Part shown: one piece after another, positions 14,264 to 32,000 of the stretch | Numbering within the stretch: position 1 is the first letter of the stretch | Layout of the letters: each line of letters starts with the position of its first letter | Origin: Geotalea daltonii FRC-32 | GTDB taxonomy: Bacteria; Desulfobacterota; Desulfuromonadia; Geobacterales; Geobacteraceae | Assembly: GCF_000022265.1 (NCBI RefSeq) | Contig: NC_011979.1 | Location: forward strand, 1,110,001 to 1,142,000 | Reading direction: 5' to 3' | DNA: 32,000 nt | The notes under the pieces: generated by a model | The model's input: only the letters and a program-made list of their open reading frames with translations | Database searches by the model: none | What the model was told of the DNA's origin: nothing | Program-made: the position numbers and the translations under genes

Positions 14264-16567
14264 ATGGACATGGCCACCGGCTTATTGAAGGAGCAACTGG
14301 AGTACCGCAAGCGCTTCATGGAGAAGATCAATGAGATCCACTCCGCCGCCAACCTGAACAGCATCCTGATACAGCTGAAAGACAGCATTGCCGAGCTGTT
14401 CAAAGCGGAGCGGATGACCATTTATGTGGCAGACCGGCAGCGGAACGTGCTCATTTCCCGGGTCAAATCCGGAGACGAACTGAAGCAGATTGTCGTCCCC
14501 ATCTCGCCGGAAAGCATTGCCGGCTATTGTGCCACGTCACAGCAGTTGATCAATATCACCAATGCATACGACGACCACGAGCTGAAGATGATCAACACCG
14601 GCCTTAAGTTCGACGACACTTGGGATAAGAAAACCGGCTTCCACACGGCGCAGGTGCTCTGCGTGCCGATGATCTTCGACAGCAAGCTGATCGGCGTCAT
14701 GCAGTTGATCAACAAGAAAGGTGCCGCTGCCTTCACCTCCACCGATTTGAGCTATGCCTCGGAGCTGGCAACCTCGCTGTCCATTGCCATCCACAACATC
14801 TATCGCATCAGTGCCTCGGTAAAGATTATCCGCCAAAATTCCCGCTACAATTATCTTCTGGACAAGAACCTGATCGACGAGAAGGACATCCAGAAGGCTT
14901 CAAGCCATCCGGATCTGGCAAAGATCGGTCTCGACCATCTCATCATGCGCGAATTCTCCATTTCCTCCGAGGATATGGCCAAAAGCCTCAGCCTATACTT
15001 CGGTACCGATTTCGTCTGCTTCGACGGCACCCTTCCTCCCCTGGTCGATCTTCTGGAGCGAATCAAGCCTGACCGCCTGAAAAAGGAGCGCTGGATACCG
15101 GTGAAGATTGAAAACGGCGTCCTGCAGGTGGCCATGGAAGATCCCACCGATCTGGCCAAGCAGGACCTGATCAGGTTCGTTTATCCCGAGTACCGCCGCT
15201 TGAGCTTTGTCGGCGCCTATCGCCAGGACATCGACCTCTTCATCGACCACTTCTACAATCTTGGCTCCATGGTGGGGGGCGATTCCTCCACCATCTCCGA
15301 ACTTCTCAACAGGCTTGACACCTCAGACGAGCCGGAAGTGGAGCAGGAGGTACAGAAAGTCTCCGACCAGGATAGCGTCATCGTCCAGCTGGTGAACAAG
15401 ATTGTCTGCGATGCCTACAATGCCAAGGCATCCGATATTCATATCGAACCCTACCCGGGAAAGAATGACGTCCTGGTACGGATCAGGATCGACGGCCGCT
15501 GCAAGATCTATCAGCGCATTCCATATAAATACAAGCATGCCATCACCTCCCGCATCAAGATCATGTCCGGGCTCGACATCGCAGAACGGCGCAAGCCCCA
15601 GGATGGCAAGATCGACTTCAAGAAGTTCGGTCCCATCGACGTGGAACTGCGGGTTGCCACTCTCCCCACCGCCGGCCAGCTGGAAGACGTGGTGCTGAGG
15701 GTACTTGCCTCAGGCGAGCCGATTCCCTTCGACAAGCTGGGCCTTACCTCCCGCAATACCAGGATATTTGAAGAGTCCATCAAGAAACCATACGGTCTGA
15801 TCCTTGTGGTGGGTCCCACCGGCTCGGGCAAGACGACCACCCTGCACTCGGCCGTGGCCCGCATCAACGACCCCGAAACGAAGATCTGGACTGCCGAAGA
15901 CCCGGTGGAGATCACCCAGAAGGGGTTGCGCCAGGTACAGGTCAACTCCCGCATCGGCTTTACCTTTGCCGCCGCCCTGCGCTCATTCCTGCGTGCCGAC
16001 CCGGATGTGATCATGGTCGGGGAGATGCGGGACGCCGAAACGACCTCAACCGGCATCGAGGCTTCCCTCACCGGCCACCTGGTGTTTTCCACACTCCATA
16101 CCAACTCTGCTCCGGAGACAGTCACCAGGCTTCTGGACATGGGGATGGACCCGTTCAGCTTCTCCGACGCCCTCCTCTGTATCCTCGCCCAGCGCCTTGC
16201 CCGCAGGCTCTGTCACGATTGCCGGGAGATCTATATCCCCGAGCAAAGGGAGTTGGACGGAATTATAGAGGAATACGGCGCCGAACACTTTGCCCGGCTT
16301 GGCATGGACAGGGGAGAGATCAAGCTCGCACGGGCCAAGGGATGCGCAAAATGCAATGAAACCGGTTACAAAGGGCGGCTCGGCCTGCACGAGATCCTGG
16401 AGTGCACCGATGCCATGAAGGCCCTCATCAAGCGCAAGGAAGAAGTGGATACCATCCGACGGCAGGCCATAGCCGACGGCATGACCACCCTCAAGCAGGA
16501 CGGCATCCTCAAGGTGTTCCAGGGGCTGACGGACTTAAAAGAAGTCCGCCGGGTCTGCATCAAGTAA
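14264..16567 (+). CDS. GspE/PilB-family secretion ATPase with N-terminal GAF domain
   Basis: 767 aa. Walker A GPTGSGKTTT, Asp box/Walker B DPDVIMVGEMRD, His box GHLVFSTLHTN and a tetracysteine motif (CHDC...CAKC) are present. A central T2SE N-terminal-like segment is present. The first ~170 aa look GAF-like (VLCVPMIFDSKLIGVMQLINK). Confidence 0.9.
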   Translation: MDMATGLLKEQLEYRKRFMEKINEIHSAANLNSILIQLKDSIAELFKAERMTIYVADRQRNVLISRVKSGDELKQIVVPISPESIAGYCATSQQLINITNAYDDHELKMINTGLKFDDTWDKKTGFHTAQVLCVPMIFDSKLIGVMQLINKKGAAAFTSTDLSYASELATSLSIAIHNIYRISASVKIIRQNSRYNYLLDKNLIDEKDIQKASSHPDLAKIGLDHLIMREFSISSEDMAKSLSLYFGTDFVCFDGTLPPLVDLLERIKPDRLKKERWIPVKIENGVLQVAMEDPTDLAKQDLIRFVYPEYRRLSFVGAYRQDIDLFIDHFYNLGSMVGGDSSTISELLNRLDTSDEPEVEQEVQKVSDQDSVIVQLVNKIVCDAYNAKASDIHIEPYPGKNDVLVRIRIDGRCKIYQRIPYKYKHAITSRIKIMSGLDIAERRKPQDGKIDFKKFGPIDVELRVATLPTAGQLEDVVLRVLASGEPIPFDKLGLTSRNTRIFEESIKKPYGLILVVGPTGSGKTTTLHSAVARINDPETKIWTAEDPVEITQKGLRQVQVNSRIGFTFAAALRSFLRADPDVIMVGEMRDAETTSTGIEASLTGHLVFSTLHTNSAPETVTRLLDMGMDPFSFSDALLCILAQRLARRLCHDCREIYIPEQRELDGIIEEYGAEHFARLGMDRGEIKLARAKGCAKCNETGYKGRLGLHEILECTDAMKALIKRKEEVDTIRRQAIADGMTTLKQDGILKVFQGLTDLKEVRRVCIK

Positions 16568-16575
16568 GGCTCCCC

Positions 16576-18567
16576 ATGAAGAATCCTCTCAGGCAAATCG
16601 GCAGCATCCCGGCCCCGGCCTGGCGGGGCCTGATCGGCATGCTCGTCACTGTCCTCATGGTGGTGTTGATGCTCCGCCAGTTCTACCCCCTGGAACTGCT
16701 GGAGATGAAACTTTTCGACACCGGCTTCAAGCTCCGCGGCGCCGTCACCTCTCCCGAAGCTGTCGCCATTGCCGAAATAGACGAAAAAAGCCTGCAGAAA
16801 ATCGGCCGCTGGCCCTGGGATCGGTCAGTGATGGCCCGTCTGGTGGATCGCCTTGCCGAGGCTAATGTCGCCGTCATTGCCTTCGATGTCATTTTTTCGG
16901 AAGCCGATGAAAGCGACCCCCTCTTTGCCAAAGCCATCAGCAGGGCCGGCAATGTCATCCTTCCCATAGTGTTCGATTTTCACGGGTCTCCAGCCGGTAA
17001 ACCGGATCCGCTTCTTGATACCTCCTCCTATAGCAACATTAAAAATCGGCACCTTCTGAATGATTTTGTTCCCCCCTCGGCAAATAGGGTCAATCTCCCT
17101 GTTCCAGCATTGAGCCATGAAGCCATGGGCTTTGGCCACATCAGCATGCTCCCGGACAGCGACGGCACCATGCGCTGGGAGCCGCTCGTCGTCTCCTGCG
17201 GTGGCCGCTACTTTTCCCCCCTTGGGTTGCAGGCGGCAGCCTATTTCCTCGGCGTGCCCCCGGAAAGCATCACCGTCAGGGCAACGGAGTCAGTTACCGT
17301 CGGACAGACTGTCATTCCTACCGATGTCTGGGGACGCACCATCATCAACTATTATGGCCCCGGCGGCTCCTTTCCCCATTATTCCATCAGCGACATCCTC
17401 GACGGTACCGTCCCGGCGAAGCAGCTTGAGAACCGGGTCATCCTGATCGGAGCTACCGCTCCCGGCATCTATGACCTGCGGGTAACCCCCATGGCGGCGG
17501 CCATGCCCGGGGTCGAAAAACATGCCGCCATCGCTGCCTCCATCATAGATCGTTCCTTCATCCGCAAAGTATCTGGTATTGCCGATCTGGCGGTACTTAT
17601 CGGCAGCGGCCTGCTCCTGACACTGATCCTCAGCCGGCGGAAGATCGTCGGTGCCATAACGGCAACGGCTGTAGGTATGCTGGCACTCTTCATCTCCGGC
17701 TACCTGCTCTTCAGCCTGAAGGGCATCTGGCTCAATCTGGCCTATCCCAGCAATAACCTGCTCTTCATCTTCATCGGCGTTACTGCCTTCAACTATGCCT
17801 TCGAGGAGCAGCGGGCCAGGAAAATCAGGGCCATGTTCTCCAACTATGTCACCCGCACCATCGTCAACGAGCTGATTGACAACCCGGAGATGGCGAAGCT
17901 TGGGGGGGAGCGGCGAGAGGTGACGGTGCTGTTCAGCGACCTGGTGGGGTTTACCACCTTTTCCGAGCAGCACTCGCCCGAGGAGGTGGTGGCGATCCTC
18001 AATGAATACCTGGGGGCAATGACCGACGTCATTCTCAAGTGGCAGGGGACCCTGGACAAGTTCATCGGCGACGCCATCGTCGTCTTCTGGGGGGCGCCCC
18101 TGCCGGCGGCGGACCACGCCGAGCGGGCCATCGGCTGCGCCGCGGAAATGGCCAGGGAGATGAAGCGATTGCGGGAAAAGTGGCTGGCGGAGGGAAAAAC
18201 GGCGCTCCACGCCGGCATCGGCATCAATACCGGCGAAGTGCTGGTGGGGAACATCGGCGCCCTGGGCAAGAAGATGGATTACACCGTCATCGGCGACCAG
18301 GTGAATCTTGGCTCCCGGGTGGAATCCCTGACCCGCCACTACCAAGTGCCGATCCTCATCACCGCCAACACCGTAGCCAAGCTCTGCGGTAGGGAGCCGG
18401 ATGTAAGGTTGTCAGGGCTGTCCATCCACGGTATTGAACGGGTGATTGTCAAGGGGAAGGAAGAGCCGGTTGGACTTTACCGCCTGGAGGAACAGCCGGA
18501 CCCCTCCCAGTCCCTTGTTATCGAAGACTGCCCCGAGGGGGCGGTGGTTCGATTTGCGGAGAAATGA
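16576..18567 (+). CDS. CHASE2 sensor domain - transmembrane - class III adenylate/guanylate cyclase
   Basis: ATG at 16576 lies 8 nt after the GspE stop; the track start at 16402 would overlap GspE by 166 nt. The CHASE2 signature is IAEIDEKSLQKIGRWPWDRSVMARLVDRL...IAFDVIFSE. Cyclase motifs are VTVLFSDLVGFT, KFIGDAIVVFWGAP and YTVIGDQVNLGSRVE. Confidence 0.85.
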   Translation: MKNPLRQIGSIPAPAWRGLIGMLVTVLMVVLMLRQFYPLELLEMKLFDTGFKLRGAVTSPEAVAIAEIDEKSLQKIGRWPWDRSVMARLVDRLAEANVAVIAFDVIFSEADESDPLFAKAISRAGNVILPIVFDFHGSPAGKPDPLLDTSSYSNIKNRHLLNDFVPPSANRVNLPVPALSHEAMGFGHISMLPDSDGTMRWEPLVVSCGGRYFSPLGLQAAAYFLGVPPESITVRATESVTVGQTVIPTDVWGRTIINYYGPGGSFPHYSISDILDGTVPAKQLENRVILIGATAPGIYDLRVTPMAAAMPGVEKHAAIAASIIDRSFIRKVSGIADLAVLIGSGLLLTLILSRRKIVGAITATAVGMLALFISGYLLFSLKGIWLNLAYPSNNLLFIFIGVTAFNYAFEEQRARKIRAMFSNYVTRTIVNELIDNPEMAKLGGERREVTVLFSDLVGFTTFSEQHSPEEVVAILNEYLGAMTDVILKWQGTLDKFIGDAIVVFWGAPLPAADHAERAIGCAAEMAREMKRLREKWLAEGKTALHAGIGINTGEVLVGNIGALGKKMDYTVIGDQVNLGSRVESLTRHYQVPILITANTVAKLCGREPDVRLSGLSIHGIERVIVKGKEEPVGLYRLEEQPDPSQSLVIEDCPEGAVVRFAEK

Positions 18568-18905: not shown

Positions 18906-18985
18906 CCATTAATATTGATTTTCTCAGCATTATTGTGTATGCCGTCAAATTAGTTCTAAACCAAATAACCTTACAGGAGGGTGTA

Positions 18986-21900
18986 GTGAAGGGACTCAAA
19001 ACACTCTTTTTCTTTTTGTTCATTCTGATAAGTCATGCTCTGCCGTCTTTTGCAGATACTACGGTAGGAGGTGTCATTTCCACGGATACAACCTGGACTC
19101 TGGCCGGTAGCCCTTATAATGTCACTTCAACTGTTCAGGTGTATGGGACCAGTACCACAGCAGCTACCCTCACCATAGAACCTGGCGTTGTGGTTAAATT
19201 TGCTTCCAATACCGTATTGCAGATAGGAAGTGGTGCCAGTCAGGGAGCACTAATCGCAAAAGGGACGACGACAGAGAGAATTATCTTCACCCGAAGCGGC
19301 ACAACCGGTACATGGGCAGGTCTTACCTATTATGACGGCACTGTGGATGCAACCTCAGTAATCGAAAATGCCGATGTCCAGTACAATAGCGGGTTAAATA
19401 TCACATCTGCTTCGCCTGCTTTCAGAAACTGCACCCTAACTCACATGACGGGCTATGCTAGCTTTTCTAATAGTAATCCTGTGCTGGAGAATGTCGCTAT
19501 TACCAACAACAGCAGCTACGGCATCTACCTCAACTCCTCATCGCCCATCATTACCGGCGGCAGCTTAACCAACACCAGCACCACCGGCCATGGCATTTAT
19601 GGCAGCGGCTCTCCAACATTTTCCAATTACAGCGTCTCCATCGTCAACAGTGCAGGCAAATATGGGCTCTATCAAAGCAGTACGACCTCAGCCCTTAGTG
19701 TTACCAACTCTACCATCGCCAATGGCATTTACCTTGGCTCCACCGGCATCATCCCGACTATCACTGGCAACACCTTCACTAATTTGGATAACTCCCCCCT
19801 TCATGCGGGAGCCAATATCATTGCCCAGATCATCGCCAACAACACCCTGACCGGCCAGACCTTTGCCGGCAAGATCGAGGTGGTAGGCGAGCAGATAAAC
19901 AGGGACACACTGTGGCGGAAACAGATTGCGCCTTATGTGATTTCAGGAGCCATTTACGTATACAAAGATACCATTTCGCCTGCTACTCTGACTATCGAGC
20001 CAGGAACAACAATTAAATTATTTGCAGGCGGTAGCGGGCTATACATAGGAAGTGGTGCCAATCAAGGGGCACTAATCGCAAAAGGGACGACGACGGAAAG
20101 GATTACATTTACCCGGAGCGGCACTAGCGGTACATGGGCAGGCCTTACCTATTATGACGGGGCTGTGGATGCAACATCAGTAATCGAGAATGCCGACATC
20201 CAATATACCACCGGCTTTAGTATCAACTCCGCTTCACCTGTTTTTAGAAACTGCACCATAACAGACATGACGGGCTATGCTAGCTTTTCTAATAGTAACC
20301 CGGTGCTGGAGAATGTCACTCTTACCAACAACGGCAGCTACGGTATCAATCTTTCTGCCTCATCGCCCATCATTACCGGTGGCAGCCTAACCAACACCAA
20401 CACCAACACCACCGGCCATGGTATTTATGGCAACGGGGCACCGGTCATTACGAATTACAATGTCTCTATGGTCAATAGCACTGGCAAGTACGGCCTTTAC
20501 CTGAACAGTTCCACTTCAATGTTGTCAGTCACGAACTCAACCATTGCCAATGGCATCTACCTCGCATCCACCGGCATTACCCCGACCGTTACCGGCAATA
20601 CCTTCACTAATCTGGATAGCTCTCCGATCCATGTAGGGGCGAACATAGTCGGGCAGCTTATAGCCAACAACGCCCTAACTGGCCTTACTTCAGGCGGCAG
20701 AATCGAGATCGTGGGCGAACAGGTGAACCGTAATGTAACCTGGAGCCCACTGGCAGCTCCGTATCACGTGGTCTCCGGCACTGTTTCCGTCTACAACACC
20801 ACGACAACCGCCTCGACCTTGACCATTGCACCGGGAACCGTCATCAAGTTTGCGACCAGCACCGGACTTCAGATCGGCAGTGGCACGAACCAGGGGGCAT
20901 TGATAGCCCAGGGAACACCATCAAATCGTATCACCTTCACCCGAAGCGGCATCAGCGGTACATGGGCAGGCCTTACCTATTATGACGGCACTGTGGATGC
21001 AACATCAGTAATCGAAATTGCCGACATTCAATATACCACCGGCTTTAGTATCAACTCCGCTTCACCTGTTTTTAGAAACTGCACCATAACAGACATGACG
21101 GGCTATGCTAGCTTTTCTAATAGTAACCCGGTGCTGGAGAATGTCACTCTTACCAACAACGGCAGCTACGGTATCAATCTTTCTGCCTCATCGCCCATCA
21201 TTACCGGTGGCAGCTTAACCAATACCAACACCACCGGTCATGGCATTTACGGAAGCGGCTCTCCAACAGTTTCCAATTACAGCGTCTCCATCGTCAATAG
21301 CACTGGCAAGTACGGCCTTTACCTGAACAGTTCCACTTCAATGTTGTCAGTCACGAATTCAACCATTGCCAATGGCATCTACCTCGCATCCACCGGCATC
21401 ACCCCTACCATCACCGGCAATACCTTCAGCAATGGGGATAATTCGCCACCCCATGCAGGGGCTGCCTTGATAAACCGGATTTTGTCTGAAAACACCTTCA
21501 GCGGACTTACCGCAACCGGCAAAATCGAGGTTGTCGGGGAGTATCTGACGCAAAACACTCTTTGGAAGAAGTGGGTAGCACCATATATTGTTCTCGGCAA
21601 TGTCTATGTTTTTAAGGACACCGTCACCACCGCTACCCTGACCATCGATCCGGGAGTCGTGGTGAAATTTAACACAAACACCTCGCTGCAGATTGGTTCG
21701 GGATCTTCCAGGGGGTCCATCATTGCCGATGGAGGGACGGCAGCGATCACCTTTACTTCCAGTCAGGGTACGCCTACTGCCGGAAGCTGGTCGGGTATAA
21801 CCTTCTCCGGTGACTCTGCCAGCGGCAGTATATTGAATAACATTGTCGTCGAATACGGAGGCTCAGGAGGGTACTACAATAACGCAAACGTTGTCTTTAA

Positions 21901-24391
21901 TTCTTCTTCGCCAGTGATCCGTAATTCCACAATCAGAAACAGTGCCGGAAGCGGCATCTATGTATATGGTGCACAAAACATCCCTCAGGTGGTTGGTTGC
22001 ACGGTTACAGCCAACAAGTGGGGTGTTTATGCCACTTCTTCAAACCCTTACATCGTCAATTCACGAATCTACGGCAATTCCACCGCAGGTGTATGGAACA
22101 GTTCCACGACTGTAGATGTTGACGCAAGAAATAATTGGTGGGGGGCAGACTCCGGACCAACCCATGCAAGCAACCCTTCCGGCACCGGCAACAGCGTCAG
22201 CGACAAGGTACTCTACAATCCTTGGATTGGCCAGACTCCAGGGACTGGAGTGACTTTCAGCAATGTCAAGGTTTCGCCAGCAGCGTTCAATCCTGATGGG
22301 GATTATCTCACCTTCGGGGCATTCATCTCCGCCAATGCCAACTGGACCATCACTATCACCGACAGCGGAAATAACGTCGTCAGAATTTTCACCGGCTCCG
22401 GCACTTCCATCAGTCAGAGATGGTTTGGCGAAGACAGCCAGTCTGTGAAAGTAGCGGATGGAAATTATACCTACAAGATAGAAGCGGTAAATCCTGCGAC
22501 TTTGGAAGCGGCCTCTCCCTTACAAGGAACCGTAAAGGTATTCCGCCAACTTCCTGTGGCCATTCTCGATGTGCCGACTGATGATCAGATCTTTTCCGGC
22601 GGGACCATCGTCAATGTTACCGGCACCGCCTCCGATCCTACCGATTTCAAGAACTACACCCTTGAGTATGGGGCAGGAGACAACCCGATTTCCTGGAGTG
22701 CCCTTAGGAGCGCAACAGTTCCAGTGCAAGGTAACCTTTTGTATGCCTGGGACCTCACCAATGCCACTGGAGGCGTATACACCCTGCGCCTCACCGTCAC
22801 CGATAATGCCGGGAATGCAACAGTAAAAGCGGCACGCATCAGGCTCCTCTGGATTCAGAATGCAAATTCGTCGGAGACTTACCTTTCACCGAACGGCGAT
22901 GGTACCAAGGATTCGTCGCTACTTAGCGCGACGGCCAGCTACCCGGTCAATTGGTCCGTAACGTTAAGCAACTCAACCGGTACTGTAGTGAGGACTTTTA
23001 CTATGCCGGGAAGTTCTTCCTTCAGCCAGACTTGGGACGGCCGGGATTCAGGAAATGTTGTTGTTCCTGACGGCACATACACCTATACGTTTAATGCCCT
23101 TGATCCTGTGTCCTTACTTGGAGCTTCTCCCAAAACAGGTAACATAAAGGTAGATAGTACGCTGCCCACTGTTTCCGTAACGGCGCCATTTCCCGGCGGA
23201 ATGCTGCAGAACACCGTAACCATCACCGGAACGGCAGCGGATACCAATTTGGATAACTACACAGTGGAGTATGGGTTAGTGTCGAGTGCAGGGGCGTGGA
23301 CTCTCCTTGCTTCATCGGGCACGCCAGTTACCTCTGGCACTCTGGCCGTCTGGATAACCAATGATCTTAAGAACGTGGTCAAGCTGCAAAATGGTGACTA
23401 TCAGCTCAGATTGACTGCTGTGGATAAGGCGGGAAATAGCTCCATAACCACTATCCCGGTAACGGTGGATAATCTTATTCTTTCATCCATATCAGTCAGC
23501 CGGAACACCTTAAACACAGCTTTAGGTGAATCAACAACCATCCCGTTCACCATCAACCGCTCGGGTACTGTGACGCTGAATGTCATACCCGAGAAACTCG
23601 GCTCCAATGGCACTCCCGTATATCAAGCCTCAATAAACTGTCTTGCAGCCGGCAACTATGCCTTTACCTGGAACGGCGCCGACTCGACCGGTAAAACAGT
23701 ACCAGATGAAGCATATCTTTATATCCTGAATGCTGTCGACGGAACAAGAACCGACGGCTACTCTCCGCCATATCCGAACGGCCCCGGAAGTGTCACCTGT
23801 ACCCAGAGCACGTATAACCCTCTGAAGAATCTGCCCATGACGGTGACATATACTCCGTCGCTGCCATCTCGGATCAATATGAGCATTGCCTGGGGAACCA
23901 AAAGGTACAAGATGATGGATGCAGTGCCGACATTGGCAACAACCGGCACCTTTGATTGGTTCGGAATGGACCCTGCCCAGCAAATAATGGCCAATGGCGC
24001 TTTTGCAACCTGCACGGTTGCATCGCTTCTGCCGGAAAACTTCCTGATGACTATTGGAGACATGCCCAAAGTGACCATGTTGAAAACAGACCCTTATGAA
24101 ATTTCGCTTTCATATGGGCAGTTCACCAGAATAGAATACACAGTTTCCAGGGAATCGAATGTAACCATCAAGGTTGTCTCCCCAAGTGGTATTGCGGCAA
24201 CTCTGCAAAATAATCTGCTTCAGCCGGCAGGTACTTATGAAATGGAATGGACACTTGCCGATCTTAGTGATGCATTCGGGAAGAACTTTGCTGTATCGGA
24301 AGAGGGGGATTATGCTGTCAGCATACATGCGACCAATCCCGTTACCGGCACTTACTCAATCACAAAAGGCAACCTTAGGGTCGGGCTTTGA
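18986..24391 (+). CDS. giant secreted protein: four right-handed parallel beta-helix (CASH/NosD-like) modules followed by FlgD-Ig-like and Ig-like beta-sandwich modules
   Basis: GTG at 18986 lies 6 nt after AGGAGG. Signal peptide is VKGLKTLFFFLFILISHALPSFA|DT. Repeated beta-helix rungs are present (NCTIT, NSNPVLENV, SSPIITGG, NSTIANGIYL) with an NNWWG cap. FlgD-Ig-like blocks are present (FNPDGDY..., LSPNGDGTKD...WDGRDSGNVVVPDGTYTY). Confidence 0.8.
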   Translation: MKGLKTLFFFLFILISHALPSFADTTVGGVISTDTTWTLAGSPYNVTSTVQVYGTSTTAATLTIEPGVVVKFASNTVLQIGSGASQGALIAKGTTTERIIFTRSGTTGTWAGLTYYDGTVDATSVIENADVQYNSGLNITSASPAFRNCTLTHMTGYASFSNSNPVLENVAITNNSSYGIYLNSSSPIITGGSLTNTSTTGHGIYGSGSPTFSNYSVSIVNSAGKYGLYQSSTTSALSVTNSTIANGIYLGSTGIIPTITGNTFTNLDNSPLHAGANIIAQIIANNTLTGQTFAGKIEVVGEQINRDTLWRKQIAPYVISGAIYVYKDTISPATLTIEPGTTIKLFAGGSGLYIGSGANQGALIAKGTTTERITFTRSGTSGTWAGLTYYDGAVDATSVIENADIQYTTGFSINSASPVFRNCTITDMTGYASFSNSNPVLENVTLTNNGSYGINLSASSPIITGGSLTNTNTNTTGHGIYGNGAPVITNYNVSMVNSTGKYGLYLNSSTSMLSVTNSTIANGIYLASTGITPTVTGNTFTNLDSSPIHVGANIVGQLIANNALTGLTSGGRIEIVGEQVNRNVTWSPLAAPYHVVSGTVSVYNTTTTASTLTIAPGTVIKFATSTGLQIGSGTNQGALIAQGTPSNRITFTRSGISGTWAGLTYYDGTVDATSVIEIADIQYTTGFSINSASPVFRNCTITDMTGYASFSNSNPVLENVTLTNNGSYGINLSASSPIITGGSLTNTNTTGHGIYGSGSPTVSNYSVSIVNSTGKYGLYLNSSTSMLSVTNSTIANGIYLASTGITPTITGNTFSNGDNSPPHAGAALINRILSENTFSGLTATGKIEVVGEYLTQNTLWKKWVAPYIVLGNVYVFKDTVTTATLTIDPGVVVKFNTNTSLQIGSGSSRGSIIADGGTAAITFTSSQGTPTAGSWSGITFSGDSASGSILNNIVVEYGGSGGYYNNANVVFNSSSPVIRNSTIRNSAGSGIYVYGAQNIPQVVGCTVTANKWGVYATSSNPYIVNSRIYGNSTAGVWNSSTTVDVDARNNWWGADSGPTHASNPSGTGNSVSDKVLYNPWIGQTPGTGVTFSNVKVSPAAFNPDGDYLTFGAFISANANWTITITDSGNNVVRIFTGSGTSISQRWFGEDSQSVKVADGNYTYKIEAVNPATLEAASPLQGTVKVFRQLPVAILDVPTDDQIFSGGTIVNVTGTASDPTDFKNYTLEYGAGDNPISWSALRSATVPVQGNLLYAWDLTNATGGVYTLRLTVTDNAGNATVKAARIRLLWIQNANSSETYLSPNGDGTKDSSLLSATASYPVNWSVTLSNSTGTVVRTFTMPGSSSFSQTWDGRDSGNVVVPDGTYTYTFNALDPVSLLGASPKTGNIKVDSTLPTVSVTAPFPGGMLQNTVTITGTAADTNLDNYTVEYGLVSSAGAWTLLASSGTPVTSGTLAVWITNDLKNVVKLQNGDYQLRLTAVDKAGNSSITTIPVTVDNLILSSISVSRNTLNTALGESTTIPFTINRSGTVTLNVIPEKLGSNGTPVYQASINCLAAGNYAFTWNGADSTGKTVPDEAYLYILNAVDGTRTDGYSPPYPNGPGSVTCTQSTYNPLKNLPMTVTYTPSLPSRINMSIAWGTKRYKMMDAVPTLATTGTFDWFGMDPAQQIMANGAFATCTVASLLPENFLMTIGDMPKVTMLKTDPYEISLSYGQFTRIEYTVSRESNVTIKVVSPSGIAATLQNNLLQPAGTYEMEWTLADLSDAFGKNFAVSEEGDYAVSIHATNPVTGTYSITKGNLRVGL
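19067..21535 (+). repeat. three in-frame tandem repeats of 819/828/822 bp inside the giant gene
   Basis: Units start at 19067, 19886 and 20714; the degenerate fourth module starts at 21536. 20201-20386 and 21029-21214 are identical over 186 bp by my base-by-base reading. Confidence 0.9.
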
Positions 24392-24451: not shown

Positions 24452-25156
24452 ATGAGGATGATTGGAATCAAGATAATATTATTTATTTTGCTCTGGCTGG
24501 CCTTTGCCTCTTTGACTTCTGTCACGCCTGCTTATGCAGTTACTCCCTGTCAGAGTATCCAGCAGCAGGTAGACTTGTATTTGAATAACCCCCCAAGCAT
24601 ATATTGCAAATACACTCCCGAGTTCGGGGAGTCGGAAGTAAAGATTTGGCGGGATTGTGATTATCGGCCGGCAGCTATTAAAACAGTTACCTATTCACCT
24701 GGCACTATAAATTATACCCAAAGTGGTACAGTAACCTGTTGCTATCCGGACCGTAACTGCTATCTTCCTGAGAATCAATATAAAGATACCTATACGAACA
24801 CTTATTACAAGACCATTGTAAAGAATGAATACTGTGATGGACACATTACAACCAATGAATATTCATACGGTATGAATTGGATATATAACTATGCTTCATA
24901 CACTGGATATTGTGCTACCCCTGGCAGTAGCAATTTACAGACTTATGTTGTGCCTCAACATGAGGATTCTGCGGCATATTGTGCGTCTCAAGTAACGCGC
25001 TATCTCTATACCACCATATCCATTCCGGCTAATTGTAATGACTGTTATGATTCTTCCGACCCCTGTTGCGGCAGCACCGATAAATGTTGTGGCAAGGGCC
25101 CCTGTTGTGGTGATCCCTGCTGTGGTGATGTCTGCTGCCAGAACCAAGGGGAATAG
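24452..25156 (+). CDS. secreted Cys/Tyr-rich protein with C-terminal (CC-x3-4)5 tail; unknown family
   Basis: GGAGA RBS 6 nt upstream. Signal peptide ends PAYA|VTPCQ. The mature part has 21 Cys, and the tail is PCCGSTDKCCGKGPCCGDPCCGDVCCQNQGE. It lies 60 nt after the giant gene and 68 nt before the RHS gene. Confidence 0.7.
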   Translation: MRMIGIKIILFILLWLAFASLTSVTPAYAVTPCQSIQQQVDLYLNNPPSIYCKYTPEFGESEVKIWRDCDYRPAAIKTVTYSPGTINYTQSGTVTCCYPDRNCYLPENQYKDTYTNTYYKTIVKNEYCDGHITTNEYSYGMNWIYNYASYTGYCATPGSSNLQTYVVPQHEDSAAYCASQVTRYLYTTISIPANCNDCYDSSDPCCGSTDKCCGKGPCCGDPCCGDVCCQNQGE

Positions 25157-25224: not shown

Positions 25225-28200
25225 ATGCTCAGATGGTCAAAGAATTTTTCTCATAGTTTTTGTTTTCTTTTAACAATTACATCACTGTCGGTGTTTCCTG
25301 TTTGTGCCCATGCAGGAACGGATGCGAAAAGTGCCGACGAAGCCGCTATCCAAGCTCTCAGCGCAGAAGGCAGCGATGCTGGCACCAACAATCCCGCCTA
25401 TGCCGGCAAACCTGTAAGTCTAAATGGCGGTGCAGAAACATTTCAACGGACAGACCTGACCTTAGGCAATCTGTTACCCATCAGCATCAAGCGCCGTTAC
25501 AACAGCAAATCAGGTTATGACAGCCCCTCCGGCTACGGCTGGGCGCACAACTACGACAAGCGCCTGTACACCTATTCCGACGGATCAGTAGTCATTCGCA
25601 AAGAGACCGGCTGGAAGCGTCAGTTTACTCCATCAGGAGTAGGATTTATCACCCCTGTCGGTGAGACCGGAATCCTTACCATCAACCAAGACGGCAGCTA
25701 CACCTATACGGAAAAAGACGGCGGCAAAGAACTTTATGATCCGAAGGGCCGTTTAGTGAAAATGACAGATCCCAATGGGAGTTACCTGATTCTCAGCTAC
25801 GAATCTGCCACCAGGTTCAGTCTGTGGGGCCTCCTTCCTTGGAATATCAATCAGACGAATCCCCTGAAGGTCGCCTATGACTATCATCTGAGCAGGATCG
25901 ATGAATTCACCCCCTCCGGAACCACCACCGGCGCATGGGTCACCTTCCAGTACGACACATCTACCGGCAGGCTTACCAGCATCAGTGACAGCCTGGGAAG
26001 AAACGTCACCTATGGGTACGACACCATCGGCAACCTTGCCTCAGTTGTCACGCCCCTTAGCTCCGCCCAGTATGCATACACAGACCCCACCAACAAGCAC
26101 CTGATGACCACGGTCGACGAAGGAGACGGCCCTTATGCAAACACCTACGACAAGGCCGGACGAGTCGTTCGCCAGACCCACGGCACAGGGCAGATCGACA
26201 TCGAATACACCGTCCCCAGAAAAACAACCAAAGTCACCACCACCATAAAAGATGGCACCGGTCTGTTGCTCAATACCAACATCCGCACCGTCGAGTTCGA
26301 CGACAATGGCCAGGTAGCCAAAGAAACAGACACATTGGGCAACGTGACCACATATATCCGTAATCAACAGACCTGGATCACCCGCAAAGAGCAGTGGGAG
26401 AATACCGGCACCATAGCCAGTCCGACGCTCGTACTGAAAGCAGCCATAAATTATACCTACGACAGCATCGGCAATGTACTTACCAGCACTCAGGCGCCGG
26501 GCACACCCCAAGAAAAGCAAGCTATCTATACCTACGACCCCACCTTCAATCATCAAACCAGCGAAAGCGCAGCCAGCGTCGTCAACCCGGCAATCAGCAA
26601 GATAACCAGCCATACTTACGACAGCAAAGGCAATCGCCAGAGCACCACCGAGACCGGCCTGCTCGGAGATGGCACCCCATACAGCTACGCCACTACCTAT
26701 GAAAACGATGCCAATGGCAGAGTGACAAGGATCGACGGCCCCCGCACCGACGTGCAGGACGTCACTACCTTTACCTATGACGCCAACGGCAATATGCTGA
26801 CAAAGACCGAAGCCTTAATCGGCACCACCCGTTATGACAACTACGACGCCCTGGGCAACCCAGGCACCATTACCGATCCAAACGGCAATGCCACCACCTA
26901 CACCTATGACACCGCAGGCAGGGCACTATTCGTCAAAGCCCCCGGAGACATAAACCCCACCGAATACACCTATACCACCGGCGGGTGTGGCAGCTGCGGC
27001 GGATCAACCAACCGCATCGCCTCCATCATCCAGCCCGAAGGAAACCGTATCGACTATACCTATGACACCAACGGCAAACTGACCAAGATTGCCGATAGCC
27101 AGAATAACAGCATCAACTACAGCTACGACAGCGAAGGGAACAAACTGAAAGAAGAGATCAAAGATCCGTCAGGCATCCTGCAAAAGACCATCAGCTACCA
27201 ATACGACGTCATCAACCGCCTCAAGCAGATCAAAAACCCCGATGCCACCTACACCGAATTCGGCTACGACGCCCTCGGCAACCGAACCAGCAGCAAAGAC
27301 CCCAAACAAAACCTGACCACCAGCCAGTACGACGCCCTGAGCCGCCTCACCGCCACCATCCAGCCCGGCAATGTCACCACCGGCTTCACTTACGATACAA
27401 ATAACAACCTGACCACCGTAACCGACGCCAACAGCAACAGCACCACCTACAAATACGACGATCTGGGCAGGGTCTACCAGACCATCTCCCCTGATACCAA
27501 CACCACCACCTACAGTTATGACCCTGCAGGCAATCTCAAAACCAAGACCGACGCAAAAGGCATTATCATTGCTTACACCTACGACGACGCCAATAGGCTC
27601 ACCAGAACAAGCTTCCCCACAGACCCCGCCATCACCTACAGCTACGACACCTGTATAAATGGCAAGGGAAGAGTCTGCACCATCACCGACCAGAGCGGCA
27701 CAACCACCTACGAGTACACCAAGAAGGGACAGATAGCCAAAGAGACCAGAACCATCGACGGCATTGCCTACATCACCCAGTACACCTACGACATGAACGG
27801 CAACACGAAAACGATCATCTACCCGAGCGGCAGGGTTATCACCTACAGCTACAGCAACGACAAGCCTACCACCGTCAGCAGTACCTACGCAGGCATAACC
27901 ACCACAATAGCAAACAACATAAGTTACAAACCCTTCGGCGGGATGACAGCACTTACCTACGGCAACGGTTTAGCAAGAACCATCACCTACGACAACCAGT
28001 ACCGCATCAGCACCATGATTACCGGCACCCTGCAAAACCTCACTTACGGCTACGACGCCAACGGCAACATCACCGCTATCACCAATACTCTCGACAATAC
28101 CAAGAACAAGAGTTATACCTACGACAGCCTCGACCGGCTCGGCAGCGGCACCGGCCCATGGGGCACCATCACCTGGACATATGACGGCGTCGGCAACAGG

Positions 28201-29271
28201 CAAACCCAGATCGACAGCAGCGGCACCAGCAGCTACAGCTATCAGTCCGGCAGCAACAGGCTAACAGGAATCACAGGAGCAAACCCAGCAACCTTCGGCT
28301 ACGACACCAACGGCAACACAGCAACTGAAAACGGCAAGATCTACACCTATAACCAGAATCAGCGATTGATCCAGGCAGCAGCAAATGAGACCGGCAGCTA
28401 CAGTTACAACGCCCAGGGCCAACGCACCAAGAAGACCGTCAATGGCGTCACCACCTATTTCATCTTCGACCAGCAAGGGCAACTGTTAACCGAATCAGCC
28501 ACCAATGGCACACAAGCGGAATACATCTACCTGAGCAACCAGCCACTGGCCAAGATCGACGCCACCGGCACGAACTATGTCCACACCGATCATCTGGGCA
28601 CGCCTACCATGATGACCGATGCGGCCGCAACAAAAGTTTGGGAGATAGAGGCCAGACCATTCGGGGACAGTGCAAACATTACCGGCACAGCCTCTCTTAA
28701 TCTTCGCTTCCCAGGCCAGTACGCAGATAGTGAATCAGGGTTAAACTACAATTACTTCAGGGATTACAATCCAGGCATTGGTAGGTATATCCAAGCTGAT
28801 CCGGTTGGGCTAGATGAGGGCGTCACTCTGTTCATTTATTCTGGTAACGATCCCATTTTGAACGAAGATCCTCTAGGTTTGTGGGTAAAAAGGTGTTCGA
28901 GAGCACTTGGGAATAAAAATAAACCTAAGACTTCCAAATACAACCCTTTAAGGCATGACTACTTGAGTGTAAGCGGTACATTCGTTGGATTTCAGAGGGG
29001 TAGCAACATGCTTTGGAGTAAAGGAAGGGTAGATGTAGGTAAGGATAAAGAAGAAGATAACGGCAAATGCCATACTACAATTTGTAGTGATGACAGATTC
29101 GATAAGTATGTTATGGCGTTTGTGGACTATGCTCCAACTTATTGCATAGCAGCTAACCCAGACACAATACAACATGCTGCTGGTGCCAGAAACTGCCAAA
29201 CTTGGGCAGATACAGTTATAAAAAAGGCAAAAGAGAATTACAGAAAGAATGAAACCTGCCCAAAGTGCTAA
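25225..29271 (+). CDS. RHS/YD-repeat protein with N-terminal Sec signal peptide and C-terminal polymorphic toxin domain
   Basis: AGGAGG RBS. Signal peptide ends CAHA|GTD. Dozens of YD repeats follow the pattern YxYDxxGNxxxxxD. The RHS-associated core end reads PGQYADSESGLNYNYFRDYNPGIGRYIQADPVGL...NEDPLGL. Confidence 0.92.
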   Translation: MLRWSKNFSHSFCFLLTITSLSVFPVCAHAGTDAKSADEAAIQALSAEGSDAGTNNPAYAGKPVSLNGGAETFQRTDLTLGNLLPISIKRRYNSKSGYDSPSGYGWAHNYDKRLYTYSDGSVVIRKETGWKRQFTPSGVGFITPVGETGILTINQDGSYTYTEKDGGKELYDPKGRLVKMTDPNGSYLILSYESATRFSLWGLLPWNINQTNPLKVAYDYHLSRIDEFTPSGTTTGAWVTFQYDTSTGRLTSISDSLGRNVTYGYDTIGNLASVVTPLSSAQYAYTDPTNKHLMTTVDEGDGPYANTYDKAGRVVRQTHGTGQIDIEYTVPRKTTKVTTTIKDGTGLLLNTNIRTVEFDDNGQVAKETDTLGNVTTYIRNQQTWITRKEQWENTGTIASPTLVLKAAINYTYDSIGNVLTSTQAPGTPQEKQAIYTYDPTFNHQTSESAASVVNPAISKITSHTYDSKGNRQSTTETGLLGDGTPYSYATTYENDANGRVTRIDGPRTDVQDVTTFTYDANGNMLTKTEALIGTTRYDNYDALGNPGTITDPNGNATTYTYDTAGRALFVKAPGDINPTEYTYTTGGCGSCGGSTNRIASIIQPEGNRIDYTYDTNGKLTKIADSQNNSINYSYDSEGNKLKEEIKDPSGILQKTISYQYDVINRLKQIKNPDATYTEFGYDALGNRTSSKDPKQNLTTSQYDALSRLTATIQPGNVTTGFTYDTNNNLTTVTDANSNSTTYKYDDLGRVYQTISPDTNTTTYSYDPAGNLKTKTDAKGIIIAYTYDDANRLTRTSFPTDPAITYSYDTCINGKGRVCTITDQSGTTTYEYTKKGQIAKETRTIDGIAYITQYTYDMNGNTKTIIYPSGRVITYSYSNDKPTTVSSTYAGITTTIANNISYKPFGGMTALTYGNGLARTITYDNQYRISTMITGTLQNLTYGYDANGNITAITNTLDNTKNKSYTYDSLDRLGSGTGPWGTITWTYDGVGNRQTQIDSSGTSSYSYQSGSNRLTGITGANPATFGYDTNGNTATENGKIYTYNQNQRLIQAAANETGSYSYNAQGQRTKKTVNGVTTYFIFDQQGQLLTESATNGTQAEYIYLSNQPLAKIDATGTNYVHTDHLGTPTMMTDAAATKVWEIEARPFGDSANITGTASLNLRFPGQYADSESGLNYNYFRDYNPGIGRYIQADPVGLDEGVTLFIYSGNDPILNEDPLGLWVKRCSRALGNKNKPKTSKYNPLRHDYLSVSGTFVGFQRGSNMLWSKGRVDVGKDKEEDNGKCHTTICSDDRFDKYVMAFVDYAPTYCIAANPDTIQHAAGARNCQTWADTVIKKAKENYRKNETCPKC
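28882..29268 (+). other. 129-aa C-terminal toxin domain of the RHS protein (after DPLGL, residues 1220-1348)
   Basis: It begins right after the DPLGL motif (28867-28881). The DNA turns AT-rich here, unlike the RHS core. It contains RHDYLSVSG and ARNCQTWAD (His-then-Cys order) plus CHTTIC and CPKC. Confidence 0.7.
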
Positions 29272-29281
29272 CGGAGGAACA

Positions 29282-29704
29282 ATGGCAGAAATTAAAGAAC
29301 TAATACTTGCTTTGTTTTTTGCACAAACTATTATACTGACCCAATCACCAATTTCAATCAGTGAAAATTGGACAGATGTGCCACTCAACAAGCCGTTAAA
29401 GGTAATAAATGAAGGTGCAACATTGTATGTAGATGTTACAGAAATATCGAAACTAGAAAGAAATATAGAAAAACTAGATAAGATGTTCCCAAAACATTGT
29501 CTTATTGCGATATTGCAAGACAAAAATGGACAGAGTTTCACTTTTATGAACGAAAGTGCCTACTCGTTTACCAATAAGAACACTTCACTCATATTAGTCA
29601 GCAGTAGCAGGCTAGATAAAAAAACACCGTTTATCAAGCTGAAAGTCAAAAGTTCTGTCAGGTTAAAAAATGTCAAAATTAGTTGGTCTAACTACGAGAA
29701 GTAA
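29282..29704 (+). CDS. candidate cognate immunity protein (140 aa) with N-terminal hydrophobic segment
   Basis: ATG at 29282 is preceded by GGAGG, 10 nt after the RHS stop. It has the same AT-rich composition as the toxin domain. The N-terminus is MAEIKELILALFFAQTIILTQSP. The position is typical of RHS immunity genes. Confidence 0.55.
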   Translation: MAEIKELILALFFAQTIILTQSPISISENWTDVPLNKPLKVINEGATLYVDVTEISKLERNIEKLDKMFPKHCLIAILQDKNGQSFTFMNESAYSFTNKNTSLILVSSSRLDKKTPFIKLKVKSSVRLKNVKISWSNYEK

Positions 29705-29724: not shown

Positions 29725-29750
29725 CCTGTAAAATCGTTTGTGTAAATGGC
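29725..29750. repeat. IS256-family left inverted repeat
   Basis: CCTGTAAAATCGTTTGTGTAAATGGC compared with the reverse complement of the right end, CCTGTAAATAATTTTGTGTAAATGGC. Confidence 0.75.
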
Positions 29751-29784
29751 CATATTCGGTTATCACCAACCGAAGGAGAAACTG

Positions 29785-31000
29785 ATGGCCACTACCGACG
29801 AACTGCTTGATGCACTGATGAAAGACTACAAGAAGCCCGAAGACCTAATTGGCGAGAATGGGCTTCTGAAACAACTGACCAAGAAGCTGCTGGAGCGGGC
29901 AATGCAGGCCGAGATGACCGAGCATCTAGGCTACGAGAAGCACGCCCCCAACGGAGCCAACAGCGGTAACTCCCGCAATGGCAGCTACAAGAAGACGGTC
30001 AAAGGAGATTTCGGCAACCTTGAAATGACAGTCCCTCGGGACCGCCAGTCATCCTTCGAGCCGATCATCGTCCCCAAAGGAGAGAGCCGCTTTACCGGCT
30101 TCGATGACAAGATCATCTCCATGTATGCCCGTGGCATGACCACGCGGGATATTCAGGGGCACCTGGAGGAAATCTACGGTGTAGAAGTCTCCCCAACCCT
30201 GGTATCACAGGTCACCCAAGCCGTTACCGAAGAAATTACCCTATGGCAGAATCGCCCGCTTGATGACGTGTACCCGATCATGTACCTCGATGCCGTGCGG
30301 GTTAAAGTCAGGCACGAAGGACGGGTGATCAACAAAGCTGTTTACCTGGCCATTGCCGTTACCTTCACCGGGGTCAAAGAAAGTCCTCGGCATGTGGACT
30401 GCCGAAACCGAGGGTGCCAAGTTCTGGCTCCAGGTAGTTACGGAACTGAAGAACCTAGGCGTCAAGGACATCTTCATCGCCTGCGTCGATGGACTCAAAG
30501 GCTTCCCTGAGGCCATCGAAGCGGTATTTCCTAAAACCCAGGTTCAGCTCTGCATCGTCCACATGGTGCGCCACAGCCTGAATTACGTGTCCTGGAAGCA
30601 GCGCAAGGAAGTTGCCGACGATCTGAAGCAGATCTACCAGGCAGCAACCCTGCAGCAGGCCGAAGCGAATCTGGAAGCATTCGAAACCAAGTGGAGTGCC
30701 ACCCATCCGACCATCGGCAAATCGTGGTGCAGGAACTGGGAGCGGATCATTCCCTTCTTCTCCTATCCGCCTGAAATCCGGAAAGCCATTTATACAACCA
30801 ACGCCATAGAATCGCTGAACATGTCGCTGCGGAAGGTCACCAAGAACCGGGCATCATTCCCAAACGACGAAGCTATGCTGAAACTGCTCTACCTAGCCCT
30901 GAAGAACATCGAGAAAAAGTGGACTATGCCGATCAGAGACTGGAAATCGGCACTCAACCAGTTCACCATTATGTTTGAAGAAAGAATGCCTGCTCTTTAA
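29785..31000 (+). pseudogene. IS256-family transposase split into two frames by a +1 frameshift
   Basis: The N-terminal part MATTDELLDALMKDYKKPEDLIGENGLLKQLTKKLLERAMQAEMTEHLGYEKH... runs in the frame of 29746..30510. The C-terminal part ...KKVLGMWTAETEGAKFWLQVVTELKNLGVKDIFIACVDGLKGFPEAI... runs in the next frame (30353..31000). Removing one G from GGGG at 30370-30373 would join them as AVTFTG-SKKVLGMW. Confidence 0.75.
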
Positions 31001-31007
31001 ACCGAAA

Positions 31008-31033
31008 GCCATTTACACAAAATTATTTACAGG
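31008..31033. repeat. IS256-family right inverted repeat
   Basis: GCCATTTACACAAAATTATTTACAGG is the reverse-complement partner of 29725-29750. Confidence 0.75.
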
Positions 31034-31100
31034 ACCCCCCAGCGGGTTTCACTTTTTTCCTAAAAACAACTTTGTCGATTTAATAATTCCTTTCCTGGTT

Positions 31101-31343
31101 GTGTGGGCTGCCTCCTTTGTTTATACCGGCATAATAGGCGGGATACTTTGGATGCCTTTACATAAATTTAAATCAGACAACATTCTAACATACATCCTTA
31201 TTGCCATTGTATTCACATCTTTATTGTCACTTGGCACGAATCATGGTGTATCGCTATTGGGGATAGGCATGAGTTCAACAAATGCAATAATGATAAGATT
31301 GCTAGAAATTAAGATATTCAAACTCAGTAATAAAGCCACCTGA
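31101..31343 (+). CDS. small hydrophobic (2-3 TM) ORF; true start uncertain and possibly truncated by the IS
   Basis: The frame is open from inside the IS (30975) to 31343. The part outside the IS (31034 onward) has no convincing RBS; the first in-frame start outside the IS is GTG at 31101. An open frame of about 100 codons in very AT-rich DNA is unlikely by chance. Confidence 0.25.
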   Translation: MWAASFVYTGIIGGILWMPLHKFKSDNILTYILIAIVFTSLLSLGTNHGVSLLGIGMSSTNAIMIRLLEIKIFKLSNKAT

Positions 31344-31450: not shown

Positions 31451-32000
31451 ATGGTGATTTTTAATATGAGAGCAATAATAGTCGTGGCTGCATTGCTTCA
31501 AGCAGTGCCAGTATATGCCGATACTCCGTGCCAAGCTCTTCAACGACAACTAGATTACTATTTACATGACATTATTGGTTGTCACTATACTGCGGAGTAT
31601 AGTGATAGAAATATAAATATCTATAAAGAATGTGATCCACCACCAACCGTCAAAACTATCACTTATTCAGCCGGTGGAGTCACTCGCACTGTAACTGATA
31701 CAGCACAATGCTGTAGTAAATCTCCTTGTTATGAACGAGATAGGTATTATGAGGAATTTACCACCATTTATTACAACACTCGGGTTGAATACGCATATTG
31801 TGATAACACTTCAACAGTTGAAGAATTCGGGTATGGAGCTTTTCCTGAATATCCATTCGTGTCTTCAGCAATATGTGGCATAACATATCCTATTAGACCA
31901 CCCACTGTTTTAACTTATGGTTGTCCAAGTCCCCAAAAAACCTTAGAGGCAACCTTAGATATCCCACCCGAATGTAAGTGTTTAGATCCGAATGATCCTT
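31451..32000 (+). CDS. paralogue of the Cys/Tyr-rich secreted protein (24452..25156); 3' end cut by the window edge
   Basis: Not in the ORF track because it has no stop in the window. My translation gives MVIFNMRAIIVVAALLQAVPVYA|DTPCQALQRQLDYYL...KTITYS...CC...YCD...YG...IPPECKCLDPNDP, 183 codons with no stop. It aligns with PAYA|VTPCQSIQQQVDLYL...KTVTYS...CC...YCD...YG...IPANCNDCYDSSDP. Confidence 0.7.
   Translation, partial: MVIFNMRAIIVVAALLQAVPVYADTPCQALQRQLDYYLHDIIGCHYTAEYSDRNINIYKECDPPPTVKTITYSAGGVTRTVTDTAQCCSKSPCYERDRYYEEFTTIYYNTRVEYAYCDNTSTVEEFGYGAFPEYPFVSSAICGITYPIRPPTVLTYGCPSPQKTLEATLDIPPECKCLDPNDP

Follow-up and report, generated by a model that had tools for sequence, protein, structure and literature searches.

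Geob_1037 of Geotalea daltonii FRC-32: a diverged cysteine-rich paralogue, and possible spare N-terminal module, at the edge of an RHS toxin locus

The RHS Locus of Geotalea daltonii FRC-32

The window, i.e., the whole stretch of 32,000 nucleotides analysed here, comes from Geotalea daltonii FRC-32 and ends inside a gene for a small cysteine-rich protein. The features considered are the following:

18935..24391, + strand: Geob_1032, large secreted beta-helix/FlgD_ig protein of 1818 aa (Pfam scan), first gene of the cassette
24452..25156, + strand: Geob_1033, 234 aa, the complete paralogue, with signal peptide, Cys-rich head and vicinal-cysteine (CC) tail
25225..29271, + strand: Geob_1034, RHS/YD-shell toxin of 1348 aa with Sec signal and DUF6531 plug (Pfam/NCBIfam)
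29249..29704, + strand: 151-aa ORF overlapping the RHS stop, candidate immunity protein by position only
29725..31033, + strand: insertion sequence of the IS256/Mutator family, with 26-nt terminal inverted repeats
31035..31343, + strand: 102-codon 3' gene remnant encoding two hydrophobic segments, truncated where the right end of the insertion sequence abuts it
31451..32000, + strand: Geob_1037, first 183 codons (BLASTP, shuffles, protein record, contig L004)
31451-31519, + strand: signal peptide of Geob_1037, cleavage after VYA
31520-31975, + strand: beta-rich Cys head of Geob_1037
31976-32000, + strand: opening residues of the CC tail of Geob_1037

To judge from its domains, Geob_1034 is an ordinary RHS polymorphic toxin, with matches to PF05593 (1e-75), PF20148 (3.5e-17) and TIGR03696 (2.8e-19), and with an Rhs core motif, ...NEDPLGLW..., in which the DPxGL cleavage motif is present. 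The 133 aa after DPLGLW (28870-29271) constitute its C-terminal tip. Neither this tip nor the 151-aa ORF gave a match in Pfam, NCBIfam or the PDB, and together they look like an uncharacterised toxin/immunity pair. Inside the RHS gene, the region 26001-28000 has a GC skew of -0.23 to -0.32 and an AT skew of +0.37 to +0.44, a strand bias that probably reflects the Thr/Tyr/Asp/Asn-rich codons of the repeats.

The C-terminal ~330 aa of Geob_1032 (residues 1485-1818, about 23387-24388) match those of the large protein of another RHS locus, L016 (39% identity, E=4e-70; L016 5493-7514). The N-terminal parts of the two proteins differ, consisting of a beta-helix in Geob_1032 and of fn3 repeats in the L016 protein, and by this alignment the C-terminus of Geob_1032 looks like a conserved module joined to variable N-terminal parts. 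The RHS, Cys-rich and large proteins all start with hydrophobic signal-like N-termini.

Further upstream, the window ORFs 14264-16567 (a GAF-MshEN-T2SSE ATPase) and 16402-18567 (a CHASE2 adenylate/guanylate cyclase) share 166 nt of one strand, and the true start of the cyclase ORF probably lies downstream of the GTG assigned to it.

The Open Reading Frame at the Window Edge

The sequence-only reading of this DNA had pointed to an ORF at 31451 that was missing from the supplied ORF track. Translation of the window gives 183 open codons from this ATG, with no stop through base 32000, as had been stated. The frame indeed runs off the window; it is, however, present in the public annotation, being residues 1-183 of Geob_1037, a 226-aa protein annotated as hypothetical, whose stop codon lies 132 nt past the window end. 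An independent assembly, the Logan contig L004, coincides with the window over 4224 nt with 0 mismatches and adds 289 nt to it. The remainder of Geob_1037 beyond the window is DPCCNSTDECCGKGPCCYDPACCGDVCCQGKGVNGAIDSIFGQAK. The CC-rich tail that had been predicted past base 32000 was found there, both in the 226-aa protein and in the L004 extension; its vicinal-cysteine heptads read DPCCNSTDECCGKGPCCYDPACCGDVCCQ and are followed by a 16-aa extension.

A plausible ribosome-binding site, GAGG, is found 6 nt ahead of the ATG, and a promoter/terminator scan around the gene gave nothing above shuffles. The signal-peptidase site, which was located by inspection of the sequence and by alignment with every family member, is AVPVYA|DTPCQ, of the AxA type and placed directly before T-x-C-Q. 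The possibility of a lipoprotein was discarded, the lipobox being absent and the site being AxA, and an immunity protein was ruled out by export, by upstream position and by the N-terminal fusion seen in relatives. On its own, the window-edge ORF would be a mere hypothetical gene, already annotated.

Geob_1037 and Geob_1033 Are Diverged Paralogues

The protein encoded at 24452, Geob_1033, had been proposed as a paralogue of the window-edge product. BLASTP aligns the Geob_1037 ORF with it at 89.7 bits (E=5e-27), with 64/199 identities (32%), and all the blocks that had been picked out by eye, namely YA|xTPCQ, Q-Q-D-YL, KT(I/V)TYS, the CC pair, YCD, YG and IPxxCxxCxDxxDP, lie in this alignment. 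The shuffling check that had been called for was run and is significant: the Smith-Waterman score is 266 against 40.0 +/- 7.2 in 2000 shuffles (z=31.5), and z is still 25 when signal peptides and tails are left out. The two mature proteins have 21 cysteines each. An alignment of ten sequences, with Geob_1037 as the reference row, contains 17 family-invariant columns, forming a framework of Cys, CD and IP..C, and all 17 are kept in Geob_1037. By sequence comparison, Geob_1037 is thus an intact, very diverged, true paralogue of Geob_1033.

Both Cys-rich genes are AT-rich, their GC content being 0.40-0.42 where most of the window has about 0.53. Cys-rich paralogues also occur in tandem in a metagenome contig (L011, 25-759 and 905-1237, 145 nt apart), so duplication of the gene is not unique to G. 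daltonii.

A Small Family with a Predicted All-Beta Head

Scans of Geob_1033 and Geob_1037 against Pfam and NCBIfam gave no match, and no relative turned up when PDB sequences were searched with the family profile. Among 5.8 billion proteins, four more close relatives were recovered (P0002-P0005, 46-53% identical to Geob_1033), and when 1.84 billion cluster representatives were searched exhaustively with the profile, only ten proteins came up; Geob_1037 matches the family profile with E=5e-78. A metagenome scan for the locus re-found the H2geo-type locus alone, and literature searches on the Geob locus tags, the DPCCG motif and Rhs in Geobacter found nothing relevant.

The AlphaFold model of the Geob_1033 head, built from ten sequences, has a pLDDT of 90.8 and a pTM of 0.71. 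It consists of one N-terminal helix followed by an antiparallel sheet, Thr/Tyr-rich and with two strands of ~20 residues. The full-length model of Geob_1037 (pLDDT 73.7 overall) has the same core, with values of 80-96 over most of residues 51-170 and of about 75 from residue 31, and a disordered tail. Foldseek searches of the PDB with both models gave no match at E<=0.001, all TM-scores being <0.2; the best PDB match of the confident Geob_1033 head model had E=0.06, and the full-length Geob_1037 model had no match in BFVD.

In Geob_1033 the CC tail starts at 25037 and reads DPCCGSTDKCCGKGPCCGDPCCGDVCCQ. Four otherwise unrelated proteins without RHS repeats (P0010, P0011, P0013 and P0014) carry from 5 to ~25 tandem DPCCGS[ST] heptads, for which there is no Pfam family match, and on these sequences the CC tail seems to be an abbreviated form of a more widespread heptad repeat that has not been described.

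The Cys-Rich Protein as a Partner of RHS Toxins

The earlier proposal that the Cys-rich protein is a dedicated partner of the RHS toxin, rather than a chance neighbour, gains strong support from sequence comparison, because of conserved gene order, head-RHS fusions and analogous Cys-rich proteins in the same slot. Three loci (L003, from Geobacter sp. H2geo, L006 and L007) encode, on one strand, a large beta-helix/FlgD_ig protein, then the Cys-rich protein and then a DUF6531-RHS protein. The contig of Geobacter sp. UBA698 (L002) ends after the large protein and the Cys-rich gene, and L005, an insertion variant of the cassette locus, agrees as far as the contig reaches. Taking the split loci together, eight keep the position of the Cys-rich gene, with three or more unrelated head types, and in seven split loci the RHS start follows the Cys-rich stop at about 50-90 nt on the same strand.

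An identical Cys-rich protein, P0002, is encoded within the regions 10001-16312 of L005 and 3117-9428 of L006. It is followed by a 1240-aa RHS in L006; in L005, the place of the RHS is taken by two reverse-strand genes (267 and 488 aa, no Pfam match), downstream of which a 510-aa RHS fragment remains.

Three further proteins (P0008, P0009 and P0012) are fusions, in which the Cys-rich head (residues 1 to about 200-230) runs into a DUF6531 plug and RHS repeats. They belong to three separate 50%-identity clusters, and each is a continuous translated gene on its own contig. The signal peptide is present in them and the CC tail is absent. Their loci also lack the large upstream gene, and the large protein may thus be dispensable or unrelated. 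In the complete fused form P0012 (L009 4240-8670), two Ig-like repeats (residues ~205-390) lie between head and plug and have a weak similarity (E=1e-4) to the FlgD_ig region of Geob_1032, and the C-terminal tip has a sub-threshold match to phospholipase A2 (PLA2G12).

The same slot is also occupied by proteins of other kinds. The RHS proteins P0017, P0021 and P0026 (loci L013, L015 and L016) are 51-56% identical to residues 1-584 of Geob_1034, and each is preceded by a small secreted Cys-rich protein whose head is not homologous to that of Geob_1033 and which has no Pfam/NCBIfam match. The small proteins of L013 and L016 end in clear DPCCG-type tails (DPCCGSKDPCCGSKDPCCGVTDRCC, and CCTNPDPCCYDP...CCGKTCCGEDECCE, respectively), and that of L015 has a single partial motif, DPSNPCCGSPDPFCG. 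A large surface protein is encoded upstream in L015 and L016 too.

Where the two genes are split, hardly anything separates the signal peptidase site of the RHS protein from its plug, which leaves the mature protein without a delivery domain of its own.

Surroundings of Geob_1037 and the Question of a Second Cassette

It had also been suggested that a second cassette starts at the window edge, with an RHS/YD gene following beyond base 32000. Geob_1033 has a large protein with an Ig-type C-terminal module upstream and a DUF6531-RHS gene downstream. By contrast, no large surface-protein gene lies directly upstream of Geob_1037, this place being taken by the IS256-type element and the cut membrane-protein ORF. 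The transposase of the element is broken over two frames that overlap (29746-30510 and 30353-31000), and the frameshift is identical in the independent assembly L004 (0 mismatches). The 8-bp flanks, TAAACGAG and ACCCCCCA, are unlike, with no target-site duplication, pointing to rearrangement or IS-mediated recombination at 29725-31033 rather than to a simple insertion. The remnant at 31035-31343 has no homologue in the related loci and may be what is left of an orphan immunity gene.

On the other side, L004 allowed 158 nt to be read past the Geob_1037 stop. The next ORF begins 81 nt after this stop with VADHQKLGSYPWSGHVVLLGKRAME (VADHQKLGSYPWSGH...); it lacks a signal peptide and resembles none of 11 aligned RHS N-termini. 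Its 25 codons gave no match by plasmid tblastn, by Pfam/NCBIfam hmmscan or by blastp against the fetched loci. The sole likeness is that of YPWSGH....GKR to EEYRWSSYLATAGRAK of the L013 Y1_Tnp protein, which has no statistical support; it recalls what follows the catalytic domain in Y1 transposase-like proteins such as that of L013 (9237-9947). In L013 (9252-9950) and L014 (11981-13003), the RHS cassettes are followed within a few kb by transposase-like genes of the Y1_Tnp (IS200/REP) type, an echo of this motif.

An RHS gene directly behind Geob_1037 is excluded, and the sequence reached lends no support to a second cassette that would start at the window edge. A true second cassette would then need an RHS gene a few kb downstream, displaced by an inserted mobile element. 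Such an arrangement would fit the intact state of Geob_1037, its plausible ribosome-binding site and its conserved tail. Interruptions of this kind do occur, the insert of L005, mobile or foreign, lying between a like Cys-rich gene and RHS remnants; the Y1-type genes of L013 and L014 are also found at such a distance, and the end of L004 at 158 nt past the stop is what would be expected at the start of a repeated element. However, the ORF behind Geob_1037 is neither RHS-like nor provided with a signal peptide, and what lies upstream is an insertion sequence without target duplication and a cut gene instead of a large-protein gene. A weak argument is that no second G. daltonii RHS was recognised among the at least 120 relatives listed for Geob_1034 (residues 1-584), a list in which no protein exceeds 1014 aa and the query itself is absent. 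Taking both sides into account, a displaced second cassette is considered unlikely.

Is Geob_1037 a Decaying Copy?

A slightly less likely alternative is that Geob_1037 is a relic, i.e., a copy without function that has survived from an old duplication or from a cassette destroyed by mobile elements, its frame being open by chance. Its head is the most diverged in the family, with 34% identity to that of Geob_1033 and 34-38% to those of all other members, against 48-56% for the orthologues among themselves. No orthologue of Geob_1037 was found among the 5.8 billion proteins, its nearest relative being its own paralogue; this lack and the unusual 16-aa C-terminal extension would also fit a decaying copy, and rearrangement scars flank the gene. 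Against decay, the frame of 226 codons is wholly open in AT-rich DNA, and the signal peptide with its AxA site, the 17 invariant columns and the 21 cysteines have all been retained.

The tail also speaks against a relic. It is 74% identical between Geob_1033 and Geob_1037 (28/38 residues), and the identity of the two Geotalea tails to those of the orthologues is lower (52-67% and 53-64%). The tail is the only part of the two genes that aligns at the DNA level, with 77% identity over 87 nt, and many of the differences fall at third codon positions. The conservation of the tail protein, with DNA that has diverged to this extent, argues for purifying selection on the tail of Geob_1037 rather than for recent gene conversion.

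It is very improbable that the Cys-rich proteins are unrelated periplasmic or extracellular proteins, metal-binding or structural, that merely lie beside RHS genes: vicinal-cysteine repeats could bind metals, and the long DPCCGSx arrays of P0010, P0011, P0013 and P0014 occur without RHS repeats, but three independent head-RHS fusions, a position that eight split loci share although their heads are of at least three unrelated types, and the short same-strand gaps of about 50-90 nt all stand against it.

A Proposed Spare Head for the RHS Machinery

The reading proposed here, which is held with a confidence slightly above even, is that Geob_1037 is an orphan or spare duplicate of an N-terminal RHS module encoded by a gene of its own, and that this duplicate probably still works with Geob_1032 and Geob_1034. 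Geob_1033 and Geob_1037 would be Sec-exported proteins with a disulfide-rich head which, in the models, is all-beta and made of very long antiparallel strands, and both end in a short tail of vicinal-cysteine heptads (DPCCGxx). The family would be the separate counterpart of the N-terminal module of Sec-dependent DUF6531-RHS polymorphic toxins. Since the RHS protein of the split loci brings no delivery domain, and given the position of the head with respect to the plug, the Cys-rich head may be that domain, supplied separately, and it could serve in surface attachment or in target recognition for the toxin cocoon.

The tail, which is dropped in the fused forms and is common to unrelated heads, would be a docking element. 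It would replace the missing peptide bond, docking the head on the RHS protein, on the C-terminal module of the large protein, or on both. Mature Geob_1034 has zero cysteines before the plug, which makes a simple disulfide between the tail and the RHS N-terminus unlikely.

As for Geob_1037 itself, it lies at the 3' edge of the RHS locus, from whose cassette it may have been parted by IS-mediated rearrangement, and it would be an alternative head for the same Geob_1032/Geob_1034 machinery. That it probably works with these two proteins is suggested by the retention of all the invariant residues and by a tail whose nearest counterpart is that of Geob_1033.

A more far-reaching version can be put forward only tentatively, with a chance of being right well below even: a hitherto undescribed three-part, Sec-dependent system for RHS delivery in Geobacter-like diderms. 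It would comprise a large surface protein whose conserved C-terminus acts as a dock, a small head that can be exchanged, and the toxin cocoon. The DPCCG tail would act as a portable docking zipper into which unrelated heads could plug, and Geob_1037 would provide the one RHS protein of the locus with a second head, of alternative specificity. If this were true, targeting modules too, besides toxin tips, would be polymorphic and stored as spares.

The Cys-rich protein, absent from the family and structure libraries searched, would be a concrete accessory candidate for Sec-exported RHS toxins of diderms that have no T6SS or Tc partners, and it bears on how such toxins leave the cell and find a target. 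The reading of Geob_1037 as a spare head suggests, moreover, that the spares stored in RHS loci include N-terminal modules besides toxin tips.

Comparison with Known RHS Systems

The RHS shell is closed at its N-terminus by the DUF6531 plug, and in Tse5, Rhs1 and WapA an N-terminal delivery or anchoring fragment is cleaved just before the plug and stays attached through it (PMC10684867, PMC12704120). The fused Cys-rich head occupies the same place, N-terminal of the plug, as the PAAR-bearing fragments of the T6SS effectors (Tse5-NT, Rhs1-NT) and the cell-wall-binding fragment of WapA, and entry by a Sec signal peptide is shared by WapA and the Geotalea cassette. However, the Cys-rich head is unrelated in sequence, Pfam family and fold to PAAR, to LysM and to the known N-terminal modules, the Geotalea module is a separate gene with a vicinal-cysteine tail, and its host is a diderm with no adjacent T6SS or sortase. 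A T6SS-delivered Rhs effector was itself considered for Geotalea; there was no PAAR or Eag match and there were no T6SS genes within the window, and the missing PAAR together with the Sec signal peptides ruled it out.

In the Tc (ABC) toxins, the RHS cocoon formed by TcB and TcC docks on a separate translocator, TcA. The Geotalea cassette is similar in being a same-strand, multi-gene arrangement, in placing an RHS cocoon beside a very large secreted protein and in needing a separate docking interface. Unlike the Tc toxins, it has no TcA-, SpvB- or TcB-propeller-type domain, its large protein is of beta-helix/Ig or fn3/Ig type, its small Cys-rich middle component has no Tc counterpart, and the fused forms dispense with the large gene. 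A Tc toxin complex was ruled out, the Pfam scan of the cassette giving only Beta_helix, FlgD_ig, Ig-like, DUF6531 and RHS.

Teneurins are eukaryotic, single-chain membrane proteins with a YD shell, whose Cys-rich/EGF regions lie N-terminal of the plug. They share with the present proteins a Cys-rich extracellular region ahead of the plug and the YD shell itself, and the RHS proteins match the TEN_YD-shell model; the Cys-rich regions, however, are not homologous.

The position of Geob_1037 recalls the orphan modules found at the 3' end of rhs loci, as it is a spare, diverged part downstream of the rhs-immunity pair and among insertion sequences. Orphan or fragmented RHS C-terminal pieces are likewise found in this zone in L005, L006 and L012-L016. 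The orphan modules of rhs loci are displaced toxin tips with their immunity genes, whereas Geob_1037 is an N-terminal partner module and not a C-terminal tip, and we know of no description of orphan copies of an N-terminal RHS accessory.

The closest counterparts in function would, by analogy, be the N-terminal fragments found in Tse5, Rhs1 and WapA; those of the spare copy would be the orphan modules at rhs loci. With respect to all of them, what appear to be new are the head family and its fold, a CC tail common to unrelated heads, the alternation of split and fused forms, and an orphaned N-terminal partner.
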